From a virus, in IMG/VR virus record IMGVR_UViG_3300009183_000002, positions 1 through 64,000 of that record: 64,000 nucleotides of DNA, one strand, 5' to 3'. How positions within the stretch are numbered: position 1 is the first letter of the stretch; each line of letters starts with the position of its first letter. Shown here one piece after another: positions 3,985 to 64,000 of the stretch. Under the pieces are notes generated by a model. It had not been told where the DNA came from. It saw nothing but the letters and a program-made list of their open reading frames with translations, and did not search any database. The position numbers were made by a program, and so were the translations under genes.

Positions 3985-4842
3985 GTGGTTGCTAAACTGA
4001 ATAAGAACGATCCTTGGATTAAAGCTGAGGACGAGCAACCTGAAGTTATGCGGTCAATTAATCGGGCCGCTGCCAGGATTACACTCAACGGTAGGCGGCA
4101 CTATACCACTCCGTTGGAATGCGGTCCTGTTCCGTCCGTAACTACGATTATCTCAGAGACTGCTTCCGAAGCAAACAAACGGAAGCTGGAGATGTGGTCA
4201 AAAAATAATCCAGGTGTTAAAGAGCAGGCAGCCGAAAGGGGTACGGCTATCCACTATGGTATGGAGCAGTACCTCAAAGGTAATAAAACGCCGGACATCA
4301 AAGATGAGTACATGGATTTTTGGTCGGGCATGCCGCCAATCTTGGATCAATTTCAAGAAATACTTTGGGCCGAATCACCAATCCTTGAAAAGTTTGATTT
4401 TACTATCGGCGCTGATGACGTGGCTCGTGTGTGGGGTTGCGATGACCAAGGGCGCGGCTGGGCTGGTGCTCCTGACATCATTGCTGTGGCTAATGGTAAG
4501 CTTACTCTCGCTGATTTAAAAACCAGCGTCAAACCTTATAGTCGTAAATGGCCTAAAAATTTAGAGAAGGGAACGCCAGAATGGCGAGACTTACTTGGAG
4601 GACATCTTAAATTTAAAAAGTGCATTTTACAGATGTGCGCTTACGATCTAGCTATTACCCAGACCTTGGGAATGACTGTGCAGCAAGCTGCAATTTTAGT
4701 TTCAACACCAGTTCGCACACAAATTTTTAAAATCTCTCGGAATTATTTAAATATAATGCATGAAAAATGGTATAAACTTGTAGCGGAATACTACGCGCAA
4801 GTTGAAGAAGGCGGTGTCCATGACCCAGATTTGATTGGTTAA
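3985..4842 (+). CDS. PD-(D/E)XK exonuclease (Cas4/MGME1-like phage exonuclease)
   Basis: PSVTTII, AAERGTAIH, AGAPD...ADLKTS, LQMCAY motifs. Confidence 0.85.
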   Translation: MVAKLNKNDPWIKAEDEQPEVMRSINRAAARITLNGRRHYTTPLECGPVPSVTTIISETASEANKRKLEMWSKNNPGVKEQAAERGTAIHYGMEQYLKGNKTPDIKDEYMDFWSGMPPILDQFQEILWAESPILEKFDFTIGADDVARVWGCDDQGRGWAGAPDIIAVANGKLTLADLKTSVKPYSRKWPKNLEKGTPEWRDLLGGHLKFKKCILQMCAYDLAITQTLGMTVQQAAILVSTPVRTQIFKISRNYLNIMHEKWYKLVAEYYAQVEEGGVHDPDLIG

Positions 4843-50770: not shown

Positions 50771-53626
50771 TTACCTGAGAGTAGAAAAGGTTCCGCCTGC
50801 GACAGAGACTCCTCTTTGTTTCATCATCTTATCAAGAAAAGACTGAGCTTCCCCTGGTTTACCCGTAAGTTGAAGTTGTCTAAGCTGGCGGGCAACATCA
50901 AAAGATTCTTGTTTTTGAGGGGTTGGTGTTTGCGTAACCATATCTGAAGCACGATAAGCGGGTTTACCAAAATCTTGAGTCATCTGTCGAATCATGTTTT
51001 CGGTCCCCGAGCCGCCAGGGAAAGCTACCAGTACGTCACCTTCTTTAGCCATTTGCGTGTTTCGTAATGTTCCAGCGGATAACCCCTGTTCATTCCAATT
51101 AGCAGGAAATACTTGAAGACCAAGGCCACGTTCTTGAGCATATCTTTCGGCTAACGTATCCGCGCCACGAGCACCTCCTGACACAATCTTTACACTCATA
51201 CCTTCTGGAATATTCAGTTGAGAAATAGTCTGATCAAGTTTCTGGCTTAACTCAGGATAGTTCTCATACTTACGACCGCCTGCAACAACAACGTTAACTG
51301 TTTGCTTGCCTTGCTTACGAGAGCCGGCTGGTAAACGCCAAGCAGAAGGCGAATTTGATGGGGAAATAGCTGCTTCGGGAGATGTGGATGACGCACCCAT
51401 AGCTGCACGTTGGACTCCATACATATCTTCAGAACTTAAGATATCAGAATAAGATTCTCCAGAGTTTTCACCACGAATAGATGTACGGCTTGCGGCCTGC
51501 ATTTTGAGAGGCTCTCCAGTTTCGGGGTCAAATGCATTAATGTTTGAAACGGATTTAGCACGACCACCAGAAAGCAAACCACCTGGCACAATTTCTAAAT
51601 CATTAGGCCCAGGTTGAGCCATCCTGGCACCGCGTTCAATATTAGAAAGCTCGCCACCCTCGGCTTCAAAAGACATAGTGTCAGGTGCGGTGCGCTTAGG
51701 GCGAACAACAGTTCCCTCACCGCTCCAATCAACTAAGGTGCTTGGCGTCCATTTAGAAAGTTCTTCAAGTTGCTCGTTGGCTGTATTAGTTGCACCTGCT
51801 AAACGGTTGTTAAGAAAATTAAGTTCTGACTCATTGTTTTGCATTTGATTGGCAACATTTCTAAGCTGTTGCCCAAGTTCGCGATCTGGTTTTTGATTTA
51901 AACTGTACAACAACATATTTTGTTGTTCACCTAAAGCAGCCTGTTGTTTTGCTAAAGCATTGATACGAGGAGTGACTTCAAGTCGAACACCTCCAAGCCA
52001 ATTTTTAACTTCGTTTTGTTTATTGATAAAATCTTGTTCAGAATTAATTGCAGTCTGTTCTGAGATAAATGGCTTACGGAAGGCAAGTTCTGGATCATCT
52101 TGCATCACATCTTTAATATTTACATCAAACTCTGTTCCACTTACCATACGGGTGTTAGGCATTTGCGACAAAGAAGCAGCTTGCAGATAACGAGGATCTT
52201 CTAAGCCAACTTCCATTGCTTGTTTTGTTTTTGTAAACTCACTGCCATACTCGTACGATTTAGGTCCAAGGCGAGATGCTAATTCTTTTTCAACTCTTCC
52301 TGTAGTTGCAGCACCACCTTCTTGTTCTAGTTGCGATGCAATGTTTCCACGTTGCTTAGCAATAAAATCCTTAACAAAACCTGTGGTGCTAACTGGTTGA
52401 CTTGTCATCTCAACACTTTGTCCAGGACCAAGGCCAGTCCGTGTTTGTCGAGGTGTATTTAAAGAAAACCGTTGGCCAGTGCGTAGGTCAATACCTTCAG
52501 CTTGATCAAGCGGGCGGCCATCAGGCATCATGTCTGCCACGGCGTTAACCGAAGCATCTTGGCGATTAGCTAATGCTTCCGTAGGTTGAGTCTGTGTACG
52601 CAGAGGTGCTTCATACGTATCTTGTAAACGGTCTACGGTACCAATGTCGATATCTTCATTACGCTGCAGTGCACTCATGGTGCGCCCCGTCATTTGATCT
52701 TCGCCCGATTCCAAGGCGTTGATTGCCTGGTCGACGTTAAAAGCACGTGTTGTCTGTTGTTGGTTTACGAGCGTTTCATTTTGAATCTCGCTTACCAGGT
52801 TCCAGAGGTTCTTGCGTTCTTGTGATTGGATGCTGGCTGCTTGCCTTGCAATCTCACTCCTGGCGCCTTTGTTGCTGAATGCGCTGACTTCATCAATCAG
52901 ATCACCAGCGGCTTGTTCTGCTGCACGATTTAGAACAGTCTGTTCAATGTAGCCACGACCGCCAAGTTGATTTGCTAAAAAGTCCGTGCCACTAGGACGA
53001 GTGGGCGGAAGAGCTTTAATTTCAGAAACAACGTCGTCAACGCCTTCTTGTAATTGACCATAAGGAGAAAATTGCCCTAACAGACCTTGACCACCCGTTG
53101 CTGCTGGTGGGTTGCCCAAATCTTCTACAGAAACTTTCTGGATTCCTAAAGTTGCACGCGCACGTTCGGGTGAAATGTTACTTAAATCTGTTTGCACAAT
53201 ACCAGGCATTCTTTCTGCCCTGGCAACACGGGCATTTTCCTCCATGGTGCCCAAACGTTCCACCATCCCACCAGGAGTTGGCCGTGCAGTAGGCGGTTGG
53301 CTAGGCGCTGGGGGACGTTGACTTGGAGGAGGTGCAGTTTGTTGACGACCAGCTGCGCGACGCACAGTTTCTTCAGCTTTACGTGCAGTGCTACCCAAAT
53401 CTTCTACTGAAACATTTTGAGTTGCGGTACGAGCTGCACGATTTGCTAATAAACGCTTAGCACCTAAGCCAGCAGCTACACCAGCACCAGCAACTAACGC
53501 CGCTTTACCTAACGCATCAATAAATCCACCGCCTTGGTCTCCACCTTCTTTCTGTCTGTCGGCTTCATACGCAGCTTGCGCCAAGAGAGCAGCTTGTAAA
53601 TTAGGATCGCTGTAATATGAAGCCAT
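50771..53626 (-). CDS. large putative virion protein with C-terminal YspA/DUF2493-like SLOG domain
   Basis: VVVAGGRKY...IVSGGARGADTLAERYA...FPANW...AGTLRNTQMAKEGDVLVAFPGGSGTENMI. Confidence 0.78.
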   Translation of the reverse strand: MASYYSDPNLQAALLAQAAYEADRQKEGGDQGGGFIDALGKAALVAGAGVAAGLGAKRLLANRAARTATQNVSVEDLGSTARKAEETVRRAAGRQQTAPPPSQRPPAPSQPPTARPTPGGMVERLGTMEENARVARAERMPGIVQTDLSNISPERARATLGIQKVSVEDLGNPPAATGGQGLLGQFSPYGQLQEGVDDVVSEIKALPPTRPSGTDFLANQLGGRGYIEQTVLNRAAEQAAGDLIDEVSAFSNKGARSEIARQAASIQSQERKNLWNLVSEIQNETLVNQQQTTRAFNVDQAINALESGEDQMTGRTMSALQRNEDIDIGTVDRLQDTYEAPLRTQTQPTEALANRQDASVNAVADMMPDGRPLDQAEGIDLRTGQRFSLNTPRQTRTGLGPGQSVEMTSQPVSTTGFVKDFIAKQRGNIASQLEQEGGAATTGRVEKELASRLGPKSYEYGSEFTKTKQAMEVGLEDPRYLQAASLSQMPNTRMVSGTEFDVNIKDVMQDDPELAFRKPFISEQTAINSEQDFINKQNEVKNWLGGVRLEVTPRINALAKQQAALGEQQNMLLYSLNQKPDRELGQQLRNVANQMQNNESELNFLNNRLAGATNTANEQLEELSKWTPSTLVDWSGEGTVVRPKRTAPDTMSFEAEGGELSNIERGARMAQPGPNDLEIVPGGLLSGGRAKSVSNINAFDPETGEPLKMQAASRTSIRGENSGESYSDILSSEDMYGVQRAAMGASSTSPEAAISPSNSPSAWRLPAGSRKQGKQTVNVVVAGGRKYENYPELSQKLDQTISQLNIPEGMSVKIVSGGARGADTLAERYAQERGLGLQVFPANWNEQGLSAGTLRNTQMAKEGDVLVAFPGGSGTENMIRQMTQDFGKPAYRASDMVTQTPTPQKQESFDVARQLRQLQLTGKPGEAQSFLDKMMKQRGVSVAGGTFSTLR

Positions 53627-53728
53627 AATTCTGGTCTATAACCGTTTGATTACCTCTCAACATTCTATTGTTGGCAAATCTTAGAAATAGAGGCGTTATA
53701 TTTAAAGAATAACGCATCAGTACCAGGA

Positions 53729-53941
53729 ATGGACGCAGGAACGCGCCAACAAAGGGTAGAAGCCCTAGAAACTATTAAAAACAAAGCCATGGAGATGGCT
53801 GGTAAGGGGAAAGATTCGCTGGAAGTACGTGATTTTGTAACTTCAGCTAAAAAAGAACTGGCATATGAGCTTCCCGATGAGGATGCTTTTAAAAAAGCCA
53901 TGAATGCAACGCTCGCATACAAGGCTAAGAAAGGAGAATAA
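53729..53941 (+). CDS. hypothetical protein
   Basis: 70-aa ORF with its own terminator. Confidence 0.7.
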   Translation: MDAGTRQQRVEALETIKNKAMEMAGKGKDSLEVRDFVTSAKKELAYELPDEDAFKKAMNATLAYKAKKGE

Positions 53942-53963
53942 TAAATTTTTTACAATGGTAATC

Positions 53964-53990
53964 GCCGGGGGTATTTACCCCGGCTTTTTT
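53964..53990 (+). terminator. intrinsic terminator
   Basis: GCCGGGGGTATTTACCCCGGC followed by TTTTTT. Confidence 0.8.
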
Positions 53991-54370
53991 GTGTGAATTC
54001 TTGGGCTACTTACCGCAATAACGTACAAAAACCAACTTTTACCCCTAGTTAGGTATTGTAATTTTTAAAAAATAAACCAAATCACCCCCAAAATGAGTCA
54101 ATGTACTTACTAAAGGGGTCGTATACATCTCAAATAGGGTACAGAATTAGCTGACGCTTCTCCCAACCCCTATCCGAGTGCGAATATGGGAGGAAAAAAA
54201 AGAACTGCGTGATGGTATCAGAAAGCGTTCTTGGTTCTGAACCAGAGCATGAGGAGGGAAAGTTGGGAAGTTAACCTCGCTTCGCTCGTAGGAAGAACGA
54301 AGACCGCTCACTTCGTTCGCTAAGAGAGTAAGTAGCACCCCCGAGGGTAACGATACACTAAATCAAGGCT

Positions 54371-54386
54371 GATACGAATTCGTATC
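54371..54386. promoter_or_regulatory. perfect 16-bp palindrome (operator-like); related copy at 57211-57226
   Basis: GATACGAATTCGTATC versus GATACGGCATCGTATC. Confidence 0.5.
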
Positions 54387-54458
54387 GCGCCTGAAATTGG
54401 GGAAGGATCCTTCGCACGACAGGGTTCAGATAGAACTGTAGTTCGCTTGGCACTGGGG

Positions 54459-54478
54459 TTTTCCACAGGTTTTCCACA
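54459..54478 (+). promoter_or_regulatory. two tandem DnaA-box-consensus sites
   Basis: TTTTCCACA at 54459 and 54470 (matches TTWTNCACA). Confidence 0.45.
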
Positions 54479-54525
54479 GGTAAGCCCAAGCATTCACATC
54501 TAACACTCGCACACATCTCAACACA

Positions 54526-54711
54526 ATGACACGTTCACTCATCGCTTCATACATGTTTGTATTCGGCGTCATCGCAACTGTTGGCACACAGCTCAGCGTA
54601 CAGAAACTTGAGGCTGCAACTGCAACTCAATGTATCCAGCATGACTGGCCAGTGAAAGCTCACCAGGTTCACATGGCTTGGTGTGCAGCCAACAACTATC
54701 GAACTAACTGA
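54526..54711 (+). CDS. small early protein with N-terminal TM/signal
   Basis: ...TQCIQHDWPVKAHQVHMAWCAANNY. Confidence 0.7.
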   Translation: MTRSLIASYMFVFGVIATVGTQLSVQKLEAATATQCIQHDWPVKAHQVHMAWCAANNYRTN

Positions 54712-54794
54712 GTACCAGGCGTGAGCCGAGGGATCGAATCCCTCACTCAGTATTACCCCCAGCGGAGATGGGTACCGCACACACGAGTAACACC

Positions 54795-54950
54795 GTGGCA
54801 ATTCGTAAGAACCTTGCTCAACAATTCGCTAATGCCGCCAAGGCATTGGAGAAAGATCAGAGCAAGGAGAAGCTTGGCTTAGCAATCATGGCTGCTCGCA
54901 TTGGTCTTGCCAATGCAATCATGCCGAAGATTCCTCCAGTCAAGCGCTGA
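54795..54950 (+). CDS. small early protein
   Basis: GTG start after repeat 1: MAIRKNLAQQFANAAKALEKD... Confidence 0.65.
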   Translation: MAIRKNLAQQFANAAKALEKDQSKEKLGLAIMAARIGLANAIMPKIPPVKR

Positions 54951-55034
54951 TTCGTACAAGCGAGTTGGGAGGTGCAAACCCTCCCACAGCTATTGCCTCC
55001 CGCAGAGATAGGCACTGCACAACAGGAGATTCCT

Positions 55035-55259
55035 GTGGACCAAGTCTACGTTCTTATGGGTTCTGTAATCTGTGATTACGACCAAGGAGACACTTGGGTA
55101 CAAGGCGTTTATGCAGATGAAGAATCTGCTTATCGCTACAGGGCTATTCTTGAAACAGAACAGCTCCAAAGAGGGATTGACTTAATTAAGTCAGATCCCA
55201 AAGCGAGCATCACCATTGATCGTCAATGGTCTGTTCGTCCTCATAAGCTAATCCGTTAA
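55035..55259 (+). CDS. small early protein
   Basis: AGGAG SD + GTG; VYVLMG...VQGVYADEESA. Confidence 0.7.
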   Translation: MDQVYVLMGSVICDYDQGDTWVQGVYADEESAYRYRAILETEQLQRGIDLIKSDPKASITIDRQWSVRPHKLIR

Positions 55260-55326
55260 AGCGGGTGACCAGGTGCAAACCCTGGTCTAGCAATTGCCAC
55301 ACACTGAGTGTGGCTCACTCAAGACC

Positions 55327-55482
55327 ATGACAACCACATATCAACAACTCCGTCAGTACTTTACTGAACAAGAGTTGGACAACGCAACAGTTATCACACG
55401 TCATGTGCAACACGATTTTCCGCACATGACATACGCAGAGATTTACATCAACCTTCTGGTTCAGATGATTGCTGAACGTTGA
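55327..55482 (+). CDS. small early protein
   Basis: MTTTYQQLRQYFTEQELD... Confidence 0.65.
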   Translation: MTTTYQQLRQYFTEQELDNATVITRHVQHDFPHMTYAEIYINLLVQMIAER

Positions 55483-55566
55483 GTACCAGGCGTGAGCCGG
55501 GGAATCAAATTCCCCACTCAACTATTGCCTCCCGCAGAGATAGGCACTGCATACATAGAGTTATCC

Positions 55567-55851
55567 ATGGCTATCAACGGTGATCTTGACCTTAGTAAAG
55601 GTTGGATCAAACATGCCAATGTTCCAGGGGGTTACTTCCTGGAATATACGGACGACGTTGTGTATCTCACTATCGTCACAGGCCCTCCAGGTTCTGGACT
55701 GATGGGCATTATTGCCCCAGGAGTAGAGACTACATACGAGGCCTGGCTTCCTGGTTTAGCCAACCCAACAGGTCATCTAACTCTCCAGGAGATACGTGGC
55801 GTCATTCGTTACCTTCATGAGAAGGCAATAGAAGATGCTATGTATGACTGA
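55567..55851 (+). CDS. small early protein
   Basis: MAINGDLDLSKGW...TYEAW...PTGHLTLQEI. Confidence 0.7.
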   Translation: MAINGDLDLSKGWIKHANVPGGYFLEYTDDVVYLTIVTGPPGSGLMGIIAPGVETTYEAWLPGLANPTGHLTLQEIRGVIRYLHEKAIEDAMYD

Positions 55852-55939
55852 GCTGTAGTACTGCACTACAAGGTGTAGGGCTAGGTGCAACTCCTAGCCT
55901 CAGTAATTGCCACACACTGAGTGTGGCTTAACTTAACTC

Positions 55940-56140
55940 ATGTCACTTATCAAGAACGCATACGTATGTGTTGTGAATGGTGAACCAGAACTGTTCCAGA
56001 CGCAACAACAAGCAGAAGATCATGCCATGGAACTTAGCTTCGCATGGTATGACGCACAGCTTGATGTTCCGGCTCCACGACTGGCAGTCATGTCAGTTAC
56101 CAACTGGTTACAGCTTCAATCACAACTAGTTCTTGTCTAA
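55940..56140 (+). CDS. small early protein
   Basis: 66-aa ORF after repeat 5. Confidence 0.65.
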   Translation: MSLIKNAYVCVVNGEPELFQTQQQAEDHAMELSFAWYDAQLDVPAPRLAVMSVTNWLQLQSQLVLV

Positions 56141-56165
56141 CATTTATTAATTTCAATTCAAACCA

Positions 56166-56390
56166 ATGCAAATCTATCAACCCTGCATCGATTCACATGA
56201 CAGAGTTATCTGGAATGGCGGTGATTCTACTCAACTCCATTTCCAATTTGACGATGGTCACTTTGGTGAAACAGAATGGATCGATGAGTACACACGTACT
56301 TTTATGGAATTCCCTACCAGCATGAGTGCCCTTCACGCAGCAATGGTTGACTTGTACAACTATTGTTCTGCTGGTCTACATAACTTCTAA
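56166..56390 (+). CDS. small early protein
   Basis: 74-aa ORF. Confidence 0.65.
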   Translation: MQIYQPCIDSHDRVIWNGGDSTQLHFQFDDGHFGETEWIDEYTRTFMEFPTSMSALHAAMVDLYNYCSAGLHNF

Positions 56391-56477
56391 TTTGATTCAA
56401 ATTTGATGTTTGCCCAGAGGGTTTCGGCCCTTTCTGCAGACTTCATGTCTGCTATCAACTCAACCTAGTTCAATACC

Positions 56478-56735
56478 ATGAACGTTGCACAAGTTGAACA
56501 TCTTCTAATCCACGATGCCCGGCTATTGGCTCGTCGAGACTCCAATGCCCATCTACCTTGTATCGATTGGAACATCGAAGAGAAGCGTCAAGCTGCTCTC
56601 GAATTGTTCTATGAGTTCCAAGATGGCATGGCTAAGTTCGAAGACCTGCTGCCAATCTGTGCCATACTTCAGAAGAAGGTTGACATCAACCGACTAGCAC
56701 TGAAGTGGGAACAGGAGTACGGCATCGAAGACTAA
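56478..56735 (+). CDS. small early protein
   Basis: 85-aa ORF flanked by family-2 repeats. Confidence 0.7.
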   Translation: MNVAQVEHLLIHDARLLARRDSNAHLPCIDWNIEEKRQAALELFYEFQDGMAKFEDLLPICAILQKKVDINRLALKWEQEYGIED

Positions 56736-56832
56736 CTGATGTTTGCCCAGAGGACTCCGGTCCTCTCTGCAGACTTCATTGTCTGCCGTAGATACATATG
56801 TACTACGCCACTAACTCAACTCAGTGTTAACC

Positions 56833-57186
56833 ATGCTTAAAGTCAACGGCACCGGTAAGATTATCCACACTCGTCTCGCCACCTTTGACGACAAAGAGTG
56901 GCTGGAAGTTACTATCGCCTACGAAGATGCCAAGCAAAACAAGCTGCGGGTGGTAGTCACCAATAGCAATGGCTTGCTCTCTGCTGTAAAAGCAGGTGAA
57001 GACCTAGTCAATACCTGGGTCGTCTTCCATGGCGACTTAGCTATCAACCGCGTCCGCTCCCACTACACAGAAGACGGTGTTCATAAAACACTCAAGTGTC
57101 CAGAAATCCGTCTTAACTACGCTTATTTAGAGCGTATGCCAATGAGCAAAACTGTAACATCAGTTGAACAAACTGCAGTTGCTTGA
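56833..57186 (+). CDS. possible OB-fold/SSB-like protein
   Basis: Beta-rich; VVVTNSNGLL...VVFHGDL; fold call is tentative. Confidence 0.55.
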   Translation: MLKVNGTGKIIHTRLATFDDKEWLEVTIAYEDAKQNKLRVVVTNSNGLLSAVKAGEDLVNTWVVFHGDLAINRVRSHYTEDGVHKTLKCPEIRLNYAYLERMPMSKTVTSVEQTAVA

Positions 57187-57289
57187 CGCCTACACTTAAC
57201 CCTTCCCTATGATACGGCATCGTATCGCTCGGTAGGTTTTCTGTAGGCCTCACACCTGAGGTCTACATCAACACTACTAACCTGCCTAC

Positions 57290-57502
57290 GTGAAACACAT
57301 TATCAAACTAGACAAAGGCAAGTACATCCAACTTGATTCTTATGGTGAGCAAACTACTCATCCATTAGAACCATTCATCGTTGGATTCTTTGTCACTGCT
57401 ATCGCCGCAATCACTGTTGGTGCAGTACTTGGTACTGATGTAACCAAGCTTATCCAAATGCCCAACCACTCAACTCAACCAACTCAACCCCTCAAGCCAT
57501 GA
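57290..57502 (+). CDS. small membrane protein
   Basis: MKHIIKLDKGKYIQLDSYG followed by a TM helix. Confidence 0.65.
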   Translation: MKHIIKLDKGKYIQLDSYGEQTTHPLEPFIVGFFVTAIAAITVGAVLGTDVTKLIQMPNHSTQPTQPLKP

Positions 57503-57696
57503 CTAACCTTTCCCCCGCCGCGCAGGCTGTGTTGGATGCCTTCAGTGAACGCTACGAGCTTTGCGGCCCGTTCGATGGCAACTGGCAGGAGCTGTGCCTC
57601 GCCGCCGCCCTTCGCGCTGCTGCGCCAATGATGGAGTGTGTGCAAGATCACCTAAAACTCCTCGCCATCGCCGCCGAACTGGAGGCACAGCCGTGA
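57499..57696 (+). CDS. LSPAAQAVLDA-family small protein, copy 1
   Basis: LSPAAQAVLDA...AAALRA...LLAIAAELEAQP. Confidence 0.75.
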   Translation: MTNLSPAAQAVLDAFSERYELCGPFDGNWQELCLAAALRAAAPMMECVQDHLKLLAIAAELEAQP

Positions 57697-57938
57697 CTGA
57701 CCAATTTCCTGACGCCACGAAAATGGTCCTTTCCCCCGCCGCGCAGGCTGTGTTGGATGCCGCAATGACCACTCCCATAGTTCTTGGTTGCTACACAGCA
57801 ACTCGCAGTCATCAAATTGCCGCCGCCCTTCGCGCTGTTGCAGATCAGGTTGAGCCTGAGGGTGGCACACCTGCTGAGGTGCAGCAAGTGCTTGACAAAC
57901 TTCTTACTATTGCCGCCGAACTAGAGGCACAACCATGA
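57693..57938 (+). CDS. LSPAAQAVLDA-family small protein, copy 2
   Basis: GTGA-coupled; same three conserved blocks. Confidence 0.72.
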   Translation: MTDQFPDATKMVLSPAAQAVLDAAMTTPIVLGCYTATRSHQIAAALRAVADQVEPEGGTPAEVQQVLDKLLTIAAELEAQP

Positions 57939-58183
57939 CTCATTACGTAGCACTTGTCACGGACCTAACCGGTCGCTATGCTAACGTCCTGGTCCAGGCC
58001 AACACCTGGGACCAAGCCATTGACCAGCTCGAAGATGCTGGCTGTGAAGTAATCGAAGATCAATCTGAAGATTACGAAGAGTATGGCATTGGGCTACTCC
58101 CACAACTTGAAGAACTCAAGGGTGTGGACGTCATCCCCATCAATGAGCTAACTACTCATTCAGACTTTGTTGTACACAACTAA
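57935..58183 (+). CDS. acidic small early protein
   Basis: ATGA-coupled; D/E-rich. Confidence 0.7.
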   Translation: MTHYVALVTDLTGRYANVLVQANTWDQAIDQLEDAGCEVIEDQSEDYEEYGIGLLPQLEELKGVDVIPINELTTHSDFVVHN

Positions 58184-58188
58184 TCACA

Positions 58189-58361
58189 TGATGCTTACTG
58201 ATCAACTCGATTTCAACAACCCCGATCATGTCACAGTTTGCTGTAAGAATGATCGACTAACTATCTACATCAGCAACAATAAGTCTTCTGTGCGTTTAAC
58301 TTACGCACTACAAACAGAAGATAGTTGCTCACCCCCACCACCCCCACTGCAGCAGTCGTAA
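58189..58361 (+). CDS. small hypothetical protein
   Basis: MMLTDQLDFNNPDHVTV...; start approximate. Confidence 0.45.
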
Positions 58362-58416
58362 CCACATCAATGGTTTAAGAGTGCCAGGGGGGGGATCTAA
58401 AATCTAATAGTTGAAT

Positions 58417-58443
58417 GGACCTGAGTACGTCCTTAAACTACTC
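58417..58443 (+). ncRNA. family-3 H-type pseudoknot leader
   Basis: GGAC-CTGAGTAC-GTCC-TTAAAC-TACTC; covaries with copies at 62165 and 62615. Confidence 0.65.
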
Positions 58444-58499
58444 GGATTCCTGATAACTGACAGTTATCGGGATTCCAACTATCCCATTGCAACTCAACA

Positions 58500-58646
58500 T
58501 TGACTTACTCACAACCAGAACTTGATCAACTCCAGGACCAAGCCGTTGCTGACTACGTAGACGCAATGGCGGACCTGGCCTACGAAATGGCTAATGCATT
58601 ACGCGAACAATACGAGCCTGACTACTATGAAGACGCAGCAATCTAA
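58500..58646 (+). CDS. 48-aa acidic protein
   Basis: TTG start; MTYSQPELDQLQDQAVADYVDAMADLAYEM...YEPDYYEDAAI*. Confidence 0.55.
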   Translation: MTYSQPELDQLQDQAVADYVDAMADLAYEMANALREQYEPDYYEDAAI

Positions 58647-59067
58647 CTATGACACCGTCACATTAATTGTGGCGGGTGTCTACATCCTATTCACCTTACT
58701 CATCCAAGCAATCACATGGCTCTTACAACGGAACAACAACTCATTGCCTACGCAGTTGGCTACGAACCCCTCACTGGTGACGAAGCTGAACTCCAGTTCG
58801 AACCAGAAGTTAACTACGATCCAAACGAAGGAGGTATCCCCAAGCCCGGTAGTATCTACCGAAACAAGCGTGGAACCTATCGCTACTACTGGGTACCAAG
58901 CGGAGGTAACTACAGTCGTGAAGAACGTAAAGACCTCGAAGGTTGGTACGACATCCCGTGCCTCGAAGACCTCGAAGAGTGGACCTTCGACTCAGTCTGC
59001 TTCACGCCAGGTGAAGACGAGGTCGAACCAGACCATCCAGACAGCTGGATTAGGCTTCTCTACCTAA
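58627..59067 (+). CDS. TM helix + Ser/Thr-rich protein overprinted on the 58716 gene
   Basis: TVTLIVAGVYILFTLLIQAITWLL helix occupies the otherwise empty 58647-58715 gap. Confidence 0.45.
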   Translation: MKTQQSNYDTVTLIVAGVYILFTLLIQAITWLLQRNNNSLPTQLATNPSLVTKLNSSSNQKLTTIQTKEVSPSPVVSTETSVEPIATTGYQAEVTTVVKNVKTSKVGTTSRASKTSKSGPSTQSASRQVKTRSNQTIQTAGLGFST

Positions 59068-59072
59068 TCTAA
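58716..59072 (+). CDS. hypothetical early protein
   Basis: IPCLEDLEEWTFDSVCFTPGEDEVEPDHPDSWIRLL. Confidence 0.7.
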   Translation: MALTTEQQLIAYAVGYEPLTGDEAELQFEPEVNYDPNEGGIPKPGSIYRNKRGTYRYYWVPSGGNYSREERKDLEGWYDIPCLEDLEEWTFDSVCFTPGEDEVEPDHPDSWIRLLYLI

Positions 59073-59527
59073 CGACGCATCATCCGTTGACGCATTGCTG
59101 CAGCAGCAGGATCTAATGTGTCGTAACCACCTCCAGTGGACGCAGGAAATGCCATGTCAGTTCCAAGGCTAGTGACTGCAGCCGCACCTAAGGTAGGCAA
59201 CGAGCCTACTGCACCTGCTGTTGCTAGCCCCGGAGCTGCATAACGCATTCCTTTAGATATCACATTACCTACTGCGTTACCTACTGCATCAATGCCTCTA
59301 CTCCCTGCATAATCAAGTATTAATCCAGCTATTCCACTTTTATTTGCATTAGATGCATTCACTGCTGTGTTCAAAGAATTACCTCGACCAAACATCTTGT
59401 TCAACTGCAAAGCAGATAAACTTTCAAGTGGTTGCCCAGGTAATCTTGATGCATCAAACTCAGCTCCTTCATTAAAAGCTCCAGGATTATTGTTAAATAT
59501 TCCTGCAAACTTACCAGCTAACTCCAT
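59069..59527 (-). CDS. Ala/Gly-rich protein antisense to the early cluster
   Basis: 152-aa ORF with AAAGGA SD; composition like the virion-block proteins. Confidence 0.65.
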   Translation of the reverse strand: MELAGKFAGIFNNNPGAFNEGAEFDASRLPGQPLESLSALQLNKMFGRGNSLNTAVNASNANKSGIAGLILDYAGSRGIDAVGNAVGNVISKGMRYAAPGLATAGAVGSLPTLGAAAVTSLGTDMAFPASTGGGYDTLDPAAAAMRQRMMRR

Positions 59528-59679
59528 TGATCCTTTACTGTTACACCTAGTTTAACTCAGGGGTATTGACAGATAACTACTGTCCACCCCCTGCACCCCC
59601 GTCAAGAGTACCAGGAATACCTTTAATCTCTTAAGGTACTTCCTTCTAACTATCCCCTATCCCCTCACTAACTAATCTC

Positions 59680-59931
59680 ATGACAGTAGCAGACTATCCT
59701 GATGACATCAATGATTACTACAAAGCTAAAGCTAGAGACTTACCTACACGTAACCGTACTACTGTCGATGATCTAATGGATGCATTGGACTATACAGTAA
59801 TCGATGCACTGCACCATGGTGGTTCCAATGATGCAATCGAGGAAGCATTCGATGCAGTAATCAATCATCCAGACAGTACCTGGTCAAGGGATGTCCTTAG
59901 CTATCGCATACGCCAAGTCCATTACAAGTAA
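59680..59931 (+). CDS. small early protein
   Basis: 83-aa ORF with A/C-rich leader. Confidence 0.7.
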   Translation: MTVADYPDDINDYYKAKARDLPTRNRTTVDDLMDALDYTVIDALHHGGSNDAIEEAFDAVINHPDSTWSRDVLSYRIRQVHYK

Positions 59932-59963
59932 CCGAGCAAGTACCGCGCATGCACCGAGCATGT
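59931..59963. repeat. three tandem 11-bp repeats
   Basis: ACCGAGCAAGT ACCGCGCATGC ACCGAGCATGT. Confidence 0.7.
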
Positions 59964-59992
59964 ACTCATACGGCAAGGTTAAGAATAAGTTA

Positions 59993-60245
59993 ATGATGTA
60001 TTGGCTGTTTTGTGTACTCAACTAATACATCAGTCATACCAAGGGGTTAGACCATTTTGTTGACATCAACAAGATGGTTAAGCATGGAGTTGGTTCGCAT
60101 TAGAACCTAAGTTTGGTGCGGCCAGACACTCCATGCATTTCCATTGGCCTGAACAATGGAACCCCTAACGAAACAACCAGTGGCCACTGGGTCTTGCAAG
60201 ACTCAGTCATCGTAACACTTGTTACGTGCCCATGGCCAAGGGTTG
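59993..60245 (+). ncRNA. putative multi-branched structured RNA
   Basis: Nested stems GGGGTT/AACCCC, ACCATTTTGTTGA/TCAACAAGATGGT, GCATGGAGT/ACTCCATGC, TCCATTG/CAATGGA, CAACC/GGTTG, CTGGGTCT/AGACTCAG, CGTAAC/GTTACG. Confidence 0.6.
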
Positions 60246-60251
60246 ACAGCC

Positions 60252-60503
60252 ATGATAGATTACACACTCACTCAACTGAAACTCATGTCCCTAATCAACG
60301 ACGCACCCAAGCCACGCATCCCTGATGCAGTAGATCGCCAACGCCTTGAAGCTATGCAACTTGTTGCGCGGATGAAAGAATCTGCAGATAAGTTTGGTGT
60401 TGGATTCGTCGGTGGCTTTATTAGTCCCGACGGACAAAAGTTTATGATGACCAACATGGACGAAGCTGATACTCAGGCACTACTGCCAGAGGATCTCAAA
60501 TGA
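60252..60503 (+). CDS. hypothetical protein (start may be 60285)
   Basis: RQRLEAMQLVARMKESADKFGVGFVGGFISPDGQKFMMTNM. Confidence 0.7.
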   Translation: MIDYTLTQLKLMSLINDAPKPRIPDAVDRQRLEAMQLVARMKESADKFGVGFVGGFISPDGQKFMMTNMDEADTQALLPEDLK

Positions 60504-60805
60504 ACGACGAGATTGATTACATTCTCGAGACGTTTAACTTTGAACGTGTCCATGTAGCAATGACTGCTCTCGATTGGTGGTGGACTGATCCACATGAAGT
60601 ACCAACAATTGCACGTCTTAAGAAACGTGCACAAATATTGTTAGAGGTTGCATACAAAGAGCACATTACTATTGCTACCGGTGGACTACAAGCTATGTAC
60701 TATCCACCGATCAAAGACTCAGATCTATTAGTAGACTCTGGTCCAATCCTTTCATTAAGCTTTGTGTTAACTGAAACCAACTCTGAGGATTACAACGATG
60801 ACTAA
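60500..60805 (+). CDS. conserved phage protein (FNFERVH...ALDWWW motif)
   Basis: IDYILETFNFERVHVAMTALDWWW...VPTIARLK...ATGGL. Confidence 0.75.
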   Translation: MNDEIDYILETFNFERVHVAMTALDWWWTDPHEVPTIARLKKRAQILLEVAYKEHITIATGGLQAMYYPPIKDSDLLVDSGPILSLSFVLTETNSEDYNDD

Positions 60806-61139
60806 CCAACACCCAATCACCCCACCGCCTGAGCTGATGCAGCAGTGGCGCCATAGTTGGCTTCCCAGTCATGGTGAGTTTGTTGAATACGTTGCCACCC
60901 AAGCCGCCCGCTGGGGCGCCGACCATGAGCTTGAGGCGTGTTGTGAGTACATGCAGCACGAAGACTTCCACGGCTTTGCCACCGAACTCCGCGCCGCCCG
61001 CCGCCCCAAACCTCCGACGCTGAAGAAGCAGGCGCTGACTGCAATGCTTCACTTGCAAAAGGCTGCAGAAACTAATATGGATACCATTGAAGCTGTGCAC
61101 ATTATCTGCCGCGCACTGGAAGCATTACCAAATGACTGA
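60798..61139 (+). CDS. GADxELEACC-family protein, copy 1
   Basis: WGADHELEACC...ELRAARRPKPPTLKKQAL...ICRALEALPND. Confidence 0.75.
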   Translation: MTNQHPITPPPELMQQWRHSWLPSHGEFVEYVATQAARWGADHELEACCEYMQHEDFHGFATELRAARRPKPPTLKKQALTAMLHLQKAAETNMDTIEAVHIICRALEALPND

Positions 61140-61497
61140 CCTTATCCCGACCCCAAATCAACTCCAGTATTGGATAGATAAAATCTGCTACCCCCACGAA
61201 CAAGGAGTTGGTCCTTCACTCAAGGACAAAGAGTTGGCAGCTTTAGCATTCAAAGCTGGCGCCGACCAGGAGCTGGAGGCGTGTTGCCAATACATAAATG
61301 AAGCTAGGTGGTTTGGTAATCCAACTCATCGCAAAGACCCATTGGTTGAACTTCGCGCCGTTCGCCGCCCCAAGCCGCCGAGTTTGAAGGAGCAGGCGTT
61401 GGCATTGGTGAGCCATGACTTCTCAGATCAACCGTGTCTTAGTGAGGAGGGTTACGCCCTTATCCGCCGCGCACTGGAGGCATTGCCCAATGACTAA
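61132..61497 (+). CDS. GADxELEACC-family protein, copy 2
   Basis: AGADQELEACC...ELRAVRRPKPPSLKEQAL...IRRALEALPND. Confidence 0.75.
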   Translation: MTDLIPTPNQLQYWIDKICYPHEQGVGPSLKDKELAALAFKAGADQELEACCQYINEARWFGNPTHRKDPLVELRAVRRPKPPSLKEQALALVSHDFSDQPCLSEEGYALIRRALEALPND

Positions 61498-61687
61498 GAA
61501 ATCTGTAATCAATTTTGATCAAACCATTGCCGGAATTAACATTTCTGAGCATGGAATACGATCTTTTAGCAAATCATTTAAACTTGGACCGTTTCAACTC
61601 ACGTTGAACGCCCGTAACTCTGGTGTCCGTGGATCGATCTCGATCCCTGGCACAGGGTTGTCCAAGCGCAACCTGAAACTTCTCTGA
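61490..61687 (+). CDS. DUF4236-like protein
   Basis: SKSFKLGPFQLTLN...SISIPGTGLS. Confidence 0.65.
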   Translation: MTKKSVINFDQTIAGINISEHGIRSFSKSFKLGPFQLTLNARNSGVRGSISIPGTGLSKRNLKLL

Positions 61688-61697
61688 TCTAACTCAC

Positions 61698-61895
61698 ATG
61701 ACATCAACTCAACTCCACGCCATGATCACACTGATGGATCAATACGGAGGCTCATTTGTATCCGCACTTGCACAAGCATTACGCTATGCAGATCCAACTA
61801 ATCGTCAACGTTTGCTTGATGCATTCCCTGATATCGTTGCCAAGTATGGTCCTGGTACCAGGTTTGCACAAGTCAAACAACCTATCGAGGTCTAA
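61698..61895 (+). CDS. small conserved phage protein
   Basis: YGGSFVSALAQALRYADPTNRQRLLDAFP. Confidence 0.75.
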   Translation: MTSTQLHAMITLMDQYGGSFVSALAQALRYADPTNRQRLLDAFPDIVAKYGPGTRFAQVKQPIEV

Positions 61896-61898
61896 CGC

Positions 61899-62159
61899 AT
61901 GTCAGTCCTAGCTATCCACAGATTACAAATTACAGATGACTATTGCACAGTTGAAGCACTGGTTGAAAACAGTATCCTTGTTTATCCACCATCAAACATC
62001 AGCCCTGCTGAGTTTGATCATGGAGTATGTGAAGCAAGGTTTATTGTGGATACAGAGGAATCAATTCCTGTGGATGAAGATGACTTCTGTAGCTATCTTG
62101 ATTCACTCAATCTGGATTGGCGACTGGTCGAAGTTGACAACTCCGATCTAGACGTGTAA
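61899..62159 (+). CDS. acidic small protein
   Basis: 86 aa, strongly D/E-rich. Confidence 0.7.
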   Translation: MSVLAIHRLQITDDYCTVEALVENSILVYPPSNISPAEFDHGVCEARFIVDTEESIPVDEDDFCSYLDSLNLDWRLVEVDNSDLDV

Positions 62160-62642
62160 CCTACCGTCCTAAGCATGACGTTAAACTGCTTATCAAATCA
62201 CACATCCCTTAACATTTAATCTAATGACTTTCCCTTCTGGTTCTACTATCAACGAATGGTTTCAAAGCGCACACTCTGATGCTCTTGCAGCAGGAGGTAG
62301 TGTATACAACATAAAGAAACATGCTGAAGAACAGCTTGTTAAAACTGTTCTACGTTGGTCATACGCTAGCTTGATTCAAGATTTAGAACAACTTGGTTAC
62401 CGCGACAGGTCAAGGGTTGTTATTCATATACAAGAACTAGCAAACAGTTTGTACAGTACAAACAATGAAGAGTTTACCGATGATTATGAAGATGAAGACA
62501 GCAATGAGTATACAGAAGATAACAATGATCTTGATCAAGTTTTAATGACAAAGGAAGCACTCATCGATTTGCTAAATGAAACTATTAAAACTCTTAGTTA
62601 ATTAAATAACCTACCGTCCTAAGCATGACGTTAAACTGCTTA
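62157..62642 (+). repeat. perfect 36-bp direct repeats (62157-62192, 62607-62642) flanking one gene; family-3 pseudoknot
   Basis: TAACCTACCGTCCTAAGCATGACGTTAAACTGCTTA twice. Confidence 0.88.
62224..62601 (+). CDS. hypothetical protein with acidic tract, enclosed by the direct repeats
   Basis: 125-aa ORF. Confidence 0.7.
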   Translation: MTFPSGSTINEWFQSAHSDALAAGGSVYNIKKHAEEQLVKTVLRWSYASLIQDLEQLGYRDRSRVVIHIQELANSLYSTNNEEFTDDYEDEDSNEYTEDNNDLDQVLMTKEALIDLLNETIKTLS

Positions 62643-62669
62643 ACATTACTCACTCACTACAAACTCACT

Positions 62670-64000
62670 ATGCAATTCCAACTCCCTGAAAACTTACAAG
62701 TCGAGTTACTTGCGTATGACCCAACGCTCAAGCAACTAGCTCGCACTACTAACTCAAAGACTAAATCAGCTAAGCCTAAGTTTCCACTGGGTCAACCCTA
62801 TACTTTTGTACCAGAAGATGCAATCAAAGCATCATTGGTACAAGATGCAATTGACTTGATCAATCCTGAGCCTGTCGAACGTAGGTGGCATGAATTCAAA
62901 CGTGCTGTAGACACAAGTTTTAAAACCGTAAGTATCTTGTATCACTATGAATCAGTATGGTATGCCGCATGGCTACCGCCTAAAGGTAAAGAACAAGACT
63001 ATGTGTATGGCTTTGCCTTTGCATATAAAGATAACAAGACTTCTAGGAATATGATCCCTTATGAATTAAACAGAATACAAGACACACAATTAATTCCACA
63101 TGGCAAATCTAATTTCATTACCTATTCACGTGTTGTAACCAGACAAAATATTGTTGATGGTTATGACAGGCTCATGTCTCTGATACCACAGCTAGCTTGG
63201 AAGAAAGGTGGACAAATACGTGAATTAGTTAAACGCTTCAACGATTCACTAGCAGAAACAATTCCTACATGGAATGATTCTCGTCATGGGATATTTGGAC
63301 GCATCAAGAATTCAAGCTATGTTAAGTTACTTGAGATGGAACGTTACATACCAGAAGAAGACTGGCATACTTGGAAGCCTTCAGTTAATAATGTTTTTGC
63401 AATTATTGATGGCTTAAAAGGTGCCCCGTATGATTACAACTGGGGTTACCACAAACCCATTCGTCACATCATTGACAAACCATTCTTTCGTAAATGGATT
63501 CAAACCAAGTGTGATGAAGTTATACTGCGTCTAAATGATACAGAAAATCAATCAGAGATGGTTGTTAAACATCCATGGAATCAAATCACTGTGTTGTTTG
63601 AAGCCATTGGTTATGTCAATCGTGTATGGCCTGATTGTCCTGTTGATTACTACCAAACACATATCAATAATCTATTAGCTCTTTATAATCCACGCTGGCA
63701 ATTCGAAGGTAACCGCGTAAGTAACTGGTTGAATGAACACATGCCTGTTGCATCCTACTTTCACATAGTAGATAAACATGTTACTCAAGCTCCGGAGTTG
63801 ACTAATGCTTATCGTATGACTAGTACTATCTCTAGTAGCACTGGGCTTACTCAGTATTACTTTACCGAATGGAAAGATACATTGCAAATGCTGCATAAAG
63901 TATTGTGTCACAGAGAAGAGAAGAATATCGAAACACTAACGCCACCAAAGCGTTGGCGACTTACTGAGTTCCATGATTATGTACAAGCAGAAGCATGGAA
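62670..64000 (+). CDS. large protein truncated by the window end; possibly PcfJ-like
   Basis: Frame open from ATG 62670 (MQFQLPENLQVELLAYDP...) to the end (...PKRWRLTEFHDYVQAEAW); not in the ORF track. Confidence 0.75.
   Translation, partial: MQFQLPENLQVELLAYDPTLKQLARTTNSKTKSAKPKFPLGQPYTFVPEDAIKASLVQDAIDLINPEPVERRWHEFKRAVDTSFKTVSILYHYESVWYAAWLPPKGKEQDYVYGFAFAYKDNKTSRNMIPYELNRIQDTQLIPHGKSNFITYSRVVTRQNIVDGYDRLMSLIPQLAWKKGGQIRELVKRFNDSLAETIPTWNDSRHGIFGRIKNSSYVKLLEMERYIPEEDWHTWKPSVNNVFAIIDGLKGAPYDYNWGYHKPIRHIIDKPFFRKWIQTKCDEVILRLNDTENQSEMVVKHPWNQITVLFEAIGYVNRVWPDCPVDYYQTHINNLLALYNPRWQFEGNRVSNWLNEHMPVASYFHIVDKHVTQAPELTNAYRMTSTISSSTGLTQYYFTEWKDTLQMLHKVLCHREEKNIETLTPPKRWRLTEFHDYVQAEAW

Follow-up and report, generated by a model that had tools for sequence, protein, structure and literature searches.

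In this study, we compared 69 distinct copies of a structured spacer from the small early genes of S-EIVl-like freshwater cyanophages. In this element a central arm can pair either with an up arm at the stop codon of the preceding gene or with a down arm ahead of the next gene. As far as comparative sequence evidence can tell, both mutually exclusive helices are maintained by compensatory change and the two-state design is real. We propose, with middling confidence, that the element is a strand-exchange hairpin between cistrons, i.e., a cis-acting RNA in the polycistronic early mRNA of S-EIVl-like cyanophages that is opened by terminating ribosomes. From these data we infer that its function probably lies in mRNA stability or processing.

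Genomic setting and architecture of the three copies

The window, i.e., the whole stretch of 64,000 nt analyzed here, comprises the first 64 kb of a viral record of 82,433 bp with direct terminal repeats. At the level of its sequence, the virus is distantly related to Synechococcus phage S-EIVl, its sole deposited phage relative (~74% identity over 12% of a 5-kb query), and its best DNA matches among public runs are freshwater metagenomes. The elements sit within an array of small plus-strand genes (~53.7 to 62.6 kb), which adjoins a divergent block of larger minus-strand genes. Ten small proteins of this array, including the neighbors of the elements, gave no PHROG match, the five small proteins nearest the elements gave no Pfam match, and ARAGORN found no tRNA-like gene in the 53-64 kb region. 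A consensus scan of 56391-56477, 56736-56832 and 57187-57289 detected no sigma-70-like promoter, and a terminator scan of the three element spacers detected no U-tract terminator, neither helix being followed by a U-tract. These empty scans are consistent with one long polycistronic early transcript.

Some features further upstream were recorded separately. A canonical intrinsic terminator with a G+C-rich stem (53964-53984) and a T-run lies at 53964-53993, ahead of the array and after the gene at 53729-53941, and the A/T-rich stretch past it (~54040-54080) is a candidate start of the long early transcript. Short contigs of one freshwater metatranscriptome run match the two genes just 5' of copy 1 (55900-56308). 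One of them, derived from a relative, has ~92% identity, the other is near-identical with a single difference in 142 nt, and none runs across the elements. They are a weak hint that the early region is transcribed in nature; as assembled contigs, they cannot reveal transcript ends.

The whole genome contains exactly three copies of the element, all on the coding (plus) strand, and the complete genomes among the relatives likewise carry three copies each. The order of parts is the same in every window copy: the upstream stop codon, the up arm, an inner hairpin capped by a tetraloop, the central arm, a short loop, the down arm, a leader and the next start codon. Copy 1 (56402-56455; core from TGA to down arm 56404-56452) has its helix base TGA at 56404-56406, paired with TCA at 56443-56445. 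The up arm GTTTGC (56408-56413), the central arm GCAGAC (56436-56441) and the down arm GTCTGC (56447-56452) surround or follow the inner hairpin AGAGGGT-TTCG-GCCCTTT (56416-56433) with its UUCG loop, and the next start is ATG 56478. The upstream stop TAA (56388-56390) lies 17 nt before the up arm. A duplicated AATTTGAT motif (56391-56407) precedes this copy and accounts for the distance, since relatives without the duplication have their stop 5 nt before the up arm.

Copy 2 (56735-56789; core 56737-56786) repeats this arrangement with the helix base TGA at 56737-56739 and its partner TCA at 56776-56778, the up arm GTTTGC at 56741-56746, the inner hairpin AGAGGAC-TCCG-GTCCTCT with a UCCG loop at 56749-56766, the central arm GCAGAC at 56769-56774 and the down arm GTCTGC at 56781-56786. 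Its upstream stop TAA (56733-56735) is located 5 nt before the up arm. The down arm is followed by an optional extra hairpin (56787-56807) with a GUAC..GUAC core, which ends ~26 nt before ATG 56833 and is also found with many second-position copies of relatives. Copies 1 and 2 together form a 43-nt direct repeat of 88% identity.

Copy 3 (57182-57267; core 57184-57267) represents a divergent class. Its helix base is the real stop TGA (57184-57186), 1 nt before the up arm GCCTACA (57188-57194); the central arm is TGTAGGC (57242-57248) and the down arm GTCTACA (57261-57267). The inner hairpin is long and composite (~57198-57238), with an apical GAUACG..CGUAUC hairpin at 57211-57226, and the downstream helix is extended by CTCA (57249-57252) pairing with TGAG (57257-57260). 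The next start is GTG 57290. A covariance model derived from other copies recovers copy 3 at 57182-57262 (25 bits, E 3e-4). Moreover, relatives hold forms that are intermediate between copies 1-2 and copy 3 and share with them the scaffold TCTGAC-arm-ACT-hairpin-TCT-arm-CTCA, and the homology of copy 3 to copies 1 and 2 can therefore be regarded as secure. The three leaders (56453-56477, 56808-56832 and 57268-57289) are ~25 nt long, C/A-rich and devoid of a Shine-Dalgarno sequence.

The gene between copies 1 and 2 (56478-56735) encodes a conserved protein of 85 aa. It is flanked on both sides by elements of this family (family 2) in the window and in relatives down to ~62% identity (with the exception of locus L049), and homologues at 52-56% identity mostly have other spacer types. 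The protein has no Pfam, PHROG or Atlas match; its predicted fold is a helical bundle (pLDDT 85) without a PDB match at E 0.001 or better. Given this lack of matches, the candidate role of the protein as a trans factor or binding partner of the element was rejected.

Covariation of two mutually exclusive helices

The first related loci were collected by a pattern scan of viral contigs, and more by two protein-anchored scans with the 85-aa gene. A covariance model of the long hairpin (R1), rebuilt on its first matches (R2), found 68 distinct plus-strand copies in the window and 41 loci, including copy 3 (E 3e-4) and a copy in phage S-EIVl (E 1e-3). The S-EIVl copy is located at 4076-4135 of locus L001, within record KJ410740, and the host of this phage is Synechococcus sp. 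PCCC-A2c. The copy at locus L056, which has wholly different arm letters, was spotted by eye and added by hand, resulting in 69 distinct copies. Among their letters, only the triplet of the stop codon, the partner of this triplet and the nucleotide preceding the central arm never vary. Rfam 15 gave no match at gathering score in the window and nothing on the elements at E up to 10 (53600-62700), and no relevant precedent for a bistable intercistronic phage element emerged from a search of the literature. A conserved ligand-binding core of the riboswitch type is also absent, the inner segment being freely replaceable. The element is a previously undescribed RNA motif, so far confined to S-EIVl-like freshwater cyanophages.

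Sorted by their up, central and down arms, the 69 copies make up 13 classes, which use nine central arms; owing to the kinship of the sequences, independent events number closer to nine than to 69, perhaps eight or nine central-arm variants. Examples are GTTTGC/GCAGAC/GTCTGC, GCCTAC/GTAGGC/GTCTAC, TCCTGC/GCAGGA/TCCTGT, TCCTGT/ACAGGA/TCCTGT and GATCAC/GTGGTC/GATCAC, the last with wholly different letters. All six central positions vary in some class, and both partner arms follow. In one class, an A inserted in the central arm is matched by a T inserted in the down arm and is bulged against the up arm.

Pairs were counted on MAFFT alignments unfitted to any structure. In the central:down helix, 93.5% of the cells are paired and seven of ten pairs have changed on both sides, as against 30-45% paired in slid controls and with none of 500 shuffles attaining the observed pairing; here the down arm was initially placed as the best match within 3-16 nt (a 14-offset window), which favors pairing. 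The up:central helix, with the stop-codon base included, is paired in 92.9% of its cells and changed on both sides in four of ten pairs (slid controls 28-44%; again 0 of 500 shuffles). When the central arms were permuted among classes, none of 20000 permutations reached the observed pairing in either helix. An up arm was found in 68 of the 69 copies. The arms are far better conserved than the inner hairpin, as expected if two pairings simultaneously constrain each arm letter.

A lone copy would prove nothing in this respect because bare 6-nt up/central/down triples are common; the case rests on covariation among homologues at fixed positions. A genome-wide scan for such bare three-strand triples, with 203 on the plus strand of the genome vs. 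~119 in shuffles, was discarded as too permissive to be informative.

An earlier note on this DNA had described the alternative pairings in the three window copies and had suggested that both are retained. Every motif that it quoted is located where it placed it, its reading of copy 3 as the same pairing logic written in other bases is correct and extends to 13 classes, and both pairings are indeed retained. It had also asked for homologues to be compared, and there the upstream segment is conserved and covaries with the central arm, so that covariation is not a property of the local hairpin alone. The bistable RNA that it envisaged fits the closeness of the two predicted energies.

Several observations bear on the choice between RNA and DNA. 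The two helices contain ~19 G.U cells vs. one C.A cell, and full pairing is attained on the plus strand only. The inner segment occurs as 37 distinct sequences of 22-61 nt, all of which form hairpins, 20 of them with UNCG or GNRA tetraloop caps. Folded alone as plus strand, spacers 1 and 2 adopt the long up:central hairpin around the tetraloop hairpin (z -3.0 and -4.6), and spacer 3 adopts the central:down hairpin (z -5.0); folding of the minus strand is weaker in all three (z -0.25, -3.5 and -2.1). The strand-specific wobbles, the RNA-type tetraloops and the fixed spacing to stop and start codons point to an element that acts as RNA rather than DNA.

All structures and energies described here are predictions. 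In state A, pairing of the up and central arms yields an irregular hairpin of ~16 bp (~19-20 rungs when its 1x1 and 2x2 loops are counted), which has the stop codon of the upstream gene as its base and encloses the very stable inner hairpin with its tetraloop cap. In copies 1 and 2 it consists of 3 + 6 + 7 bp with one 1x1 and one 2x2 loop, and it is longer in copy 3. In state B, the central arm pairs instead with the down arm, which nearly repeats the up arm, and two separate hairpins result. Constrained folding of 39 distinct copies gives a mean difference E(A) minus E(B) of -1.7 kcal/mol (range -9 to +2.5), with 33 of the 39 lying within ~3.6 kcal/mol and several classes slightly favoring state B. 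The two states are thus predicted to be nearly balanced. Classes with a G+C-rich up:central helix have their downstream helix lengthened by four or five pairs (CUCA/UGAG and similar), by which the balance is preserved; two classes with TCCTGY arms are exceptions and favor state A by 7.5-9 kcal/mol. For all three window copies, which of states A and B is predicted to be more populated depends on the length of the flanks. The predicted barriers to refolding are 5-9.5 kcal/mol, and since these are low, the states should exchange quickly and leave no lasting 'memory' of translation.

Stop codons and the proposed roles of terminating ribosomes and transcript processing

The element is placed tightly relative to both neighboring reading frames. 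In 41 of the 69 copies, the longest frame upstream terminates at the same UGA that forms the foot of helix A, and in 62 the stop lies no more than 7 nt before the up arm; in the remaining seven, including copy 1 of the window, it lies 12-42 nt upstream. A ribosome with a stop codon in its A site covers about the next ten nucleotides. Because its footprint reaches beyond the stop, a terminating ribosome must unwind the up arm in most copies, and at copy 1 with its more distant stop it would barely reach it. On the other side, the distance from the end of the down arm to the next start is 18-31 nt in most copies (mode 24-26), and in copy 2, where the extra hairpin intervenes, it is this hairpin that keeps a comparable distance. 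The predicted accessibility of the start region (-15 to +12) is equal in both states (0.532 vs. 0.539, p 0.39, 67 copies), and neither state is thus predicted to mask the downstream start.

We propose the following sequence of events. A ribosome terminating on the upstream gene would cover the up arm and would have to open state A. The freed central arm would be captured at once by the down arm, making the opening cheap in net energy, and would swap back after departure of the ribosome. The central strand would thereby always be paired and the junction always guarded by a hairpin, with hairpin A forming the 3' end of the upstream cistron and hairpin B the 5' edge of the downstream ribosome-binding site. 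The output would likely be segmental stability or processing of the long early transcript and not gating of the downstream start. Points against this reading are the seven copies with a more distant stop, the two unbalanced TCCTGY classes and the ability of the downstream hairpin to stand alone, as seen from the copy at the upstream site of locus L043, which has no up arm. It is conceivable, though we consider it doubtful, that such a 'compensated-unwinding' hairpin represents a new intercistronic class: a hairpin placed over a stop codon and equipped with a spare strand, to be opened at almost no net cost, such that the junction would refold in real time with translation upstream, and the neighboring cistrons would change in stability or processing accordingly.

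The main rival to strand exchange is a processing signal in which ribosomes play no role; the two readings differ in whether translation matters. Here, state A would form first during transcription and be cut by a host double- or single-strand RNase, similar to the early RNase III sites of phage T7. The upstream mRNA would keep the inner hairpin at its 3' end, and the central and down arms would then refold into a 5'-terminal hairpin protecting the downstream mRNA. Several features suit this reading, which we regard as rather unlikely. State A is an irregular intercistronic hairpin of about two helical turns with internal loops, its rungs coming near the 22 bp of an ideal RNase III substrate (PMC3867540). 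Internal loops in RNase III substrates direct single-strand cuts that leave stabilizing 3' hairpins (PMC3867540). The T7 early signals are likewise irregular hairpins of about two turns with internal loops, lie between early cistrons just after stop codons, and leave upon cleavage a stabilizing hairpin at the 3' end (PMC3867540). The intercistronic site in a gene array without internal promoter or terminator matches and the fixed distance of hairpin B from the start also suit a processing signal.

A nuclease could be supplied by the host. RNase III, T7-type RNA polymerase and sigma-70 region 2 were not found in the phage genome (the absence of the RNA polymerase being weak, as the control of that search matched nowhere), and the region is therefore presumably transcribed and processed by host enzymes; the Synechococcus elongatus genome used as a control does contain RNase III. 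Against the processing reading, state A would have to dominate before the cut, yet several classes slightly favor B, and the stop codon as helix base is left unexplained beyond compact gene spacing. The T7 sites differ in having no conserved third strand able to take over the 3' arm, and whereas those are cleaved, the present hairpins are known from predicted folds, in phages with a cyanobacterial host and with unrelated sequences.

Gene junctions and further alternatives

Comparison of the neighboring genes indicates that the elements mark the mosaic junctions at which early gene cassettes are exchanged. In the commonest class, at least 14 different gene ends on the upstream side are combined with at least 13 different gene starts on the downstream side (counted as gene clusters), and among relatives genes are gained or lost exactly at element borders. 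E.g., where the homologue of the gene starting at 57290 comes directly after a copy-2-type element, both the gene at 56833-57186 and copy 3 are missing. This marking is a by-product of conserved sequence and does not explain the pairing. In the copy at locus L043 (~890-1009, upstream of the 85-aa homologue), the up arm and half of the inner hairpin are replaced by unrelated sequence and the central:down pairing is kept, which likely reflects a recombination breakpoint inside the element.

These findings invite a second reading, namely a recombination linker similar to the PeSLs of T4-type phages, in which small early genes would be shuffled by homologous crossover within the conserved spacer, with ordinary hairpins and a third arm of no significance. 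In addition to the joined gene clusters, the breaks at element borders and the replaced 5' half at L043, the single gene bracketed by two copies in the window argues for it. In both PeSLs and the present elements, a conserved and structured spacer of ~50-100 nt borders small orphan genes of a plastic early region, and junctions of insertion, deletion and replacement coincide with it. Nevertheless, we consider the reading improbable. Homology requires no complementarity, and the compensation in two helices, the plus-strand wobbles and the tetraloops would remain unexplained. In addition, PeSLs are defined by a strong sigma-70-like promoter (-35/-10 hexamers preceded by an AT-rich region) together with a stem-loop terminator and a Shine-Dalgarno sequence (PMC2839356, PMC4122927), none of which was found here; stable stem-loops are present, no T-run follows them and the terminator scan was empty. 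Two covarying alternative helices have not been reported for PeSLs. The recombination substrate put forward in the earlier note as an alternative to a bistable RNA thus finds weak backing in the location at mosaic junctions, and it leaves the compensatory pairing unaccounted for.

The combination of two exclusive helices with one strand in common, the first strand lying under a translating ribosome, also recalls an attenuator-type switch, in which one state controls read-through or downstream translation initiation as in the trp and erm leaders. We give little credence to this reading. A U-tract follows neither helix, the start is equally accessible in both states, and the surroundings of the starts showed no fourth strand that could pair with the down arm. 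An attenuator of the trp or erm type is unlikely because the state does not change the predicted start accessibility, and on the same ground an erm-like masking of the downstream start was rejected. The trp, erm and cat attenuators resemble the element in their exclusive helices with a shared strand and in a first strand that can be occluded by a ribosome; they differ in their terminator U-tract or masked ribosome-binding site, in using four strands instead of three, and in sensing a stalled leader peptide, whereas the sensor here would be the normal termination of a full-length gene. Another comparison is the coat-replicase coupling of phage MS2, where passage of upstream ribosomes opens a helix and thereby unmasks the downstream start. 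The opening of a helix by upstream ribosomes and the resulting change of the intercistronic fold are shared with the strand exchange proposed here, but in MS2 it is the start that is unmasked, and here the start is equally accessible in both states.

Finally, a DNA-level site (half-sites for a DNA-binding protein, or a cruciform or single-strand hairpin acting in replication or site-specific recombination) is very improbable, and an operator palindrome was rejected: although the central and down arms of copies 1 and 2 form a short palindrome with a 5-6-nt spacer, nine central arms with several classes per genome would need several co-evolving proteins, the G.T positions spoil the palindrome and suit a single strand only, the elements keep a fixed orientation and distance to stop and start codons, and no recombinase lies beside the elements, whose small neighboring proteins are without matches. 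A small peptide was rejected as well: the ATG in 'TGATG' opens a short frame in copies 1 and 2, but relatives have lost this ATG (TGACG) and do not maintain the frame, and substitutions that are compensatory at the RNA level alter amino acids.

Most natural RNAs in which covariation supports each of two exclusive folds belong to the riboswitches and leader attenuators. The present element, by contrast, has no ligand pocket, no U-tract terminator and no masked start, and it lies over a stop codon within a long early transcript of a phage. If strand exchange is the correct reading, it would show how a compact phage genome can border its coding regions immediately with stable hairpins for protection or processing and still keep ribosomes from stalling, and it would offer a simple portable part for cistron insulation in synthetic operons. 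The element is in addition a clear marker of early-gene swap junctions in a widespread and poorly known lineage of freshwater cyanophages. As the cultured isolate S-EIVl has a copy, the proposal can be tested at the bench.

Other repeats of the region were noted alongside the element. The palindromic hairpin GATACG-N4-CGTATC (57210-57228) tops the inner hairpin in copy 3 as well as in many relatives, the center being mostly GAATTC, and recurs alone at 54370-54388 in a 580-nt gene-free stretch before the early genes; it could be a separate protein- or RNA-binding module. A spacer of another family (family 1, 55847-55921) follows the same three-strand logic: ACTGAG overlaps the stop TGA (55849-55851), CTCAGT lies at 55899, and a second ACTGAG at 55916 is located in the loop of a CCACAC..GTGTGG hairpin. 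Two adjacent small genes (57499-57938) are tandem paralogues with a 34-nt exact repeat and further repeats of 82-96% identity. A recurrent GTACCAGG-containing motif is found at or near spacer starts (53720-53731, 59609-59620, 54710-54727 and 55481-55498), these sites including AGTACCAGGAAT twice and GAGTACCAGGCGTGAGCC twice.
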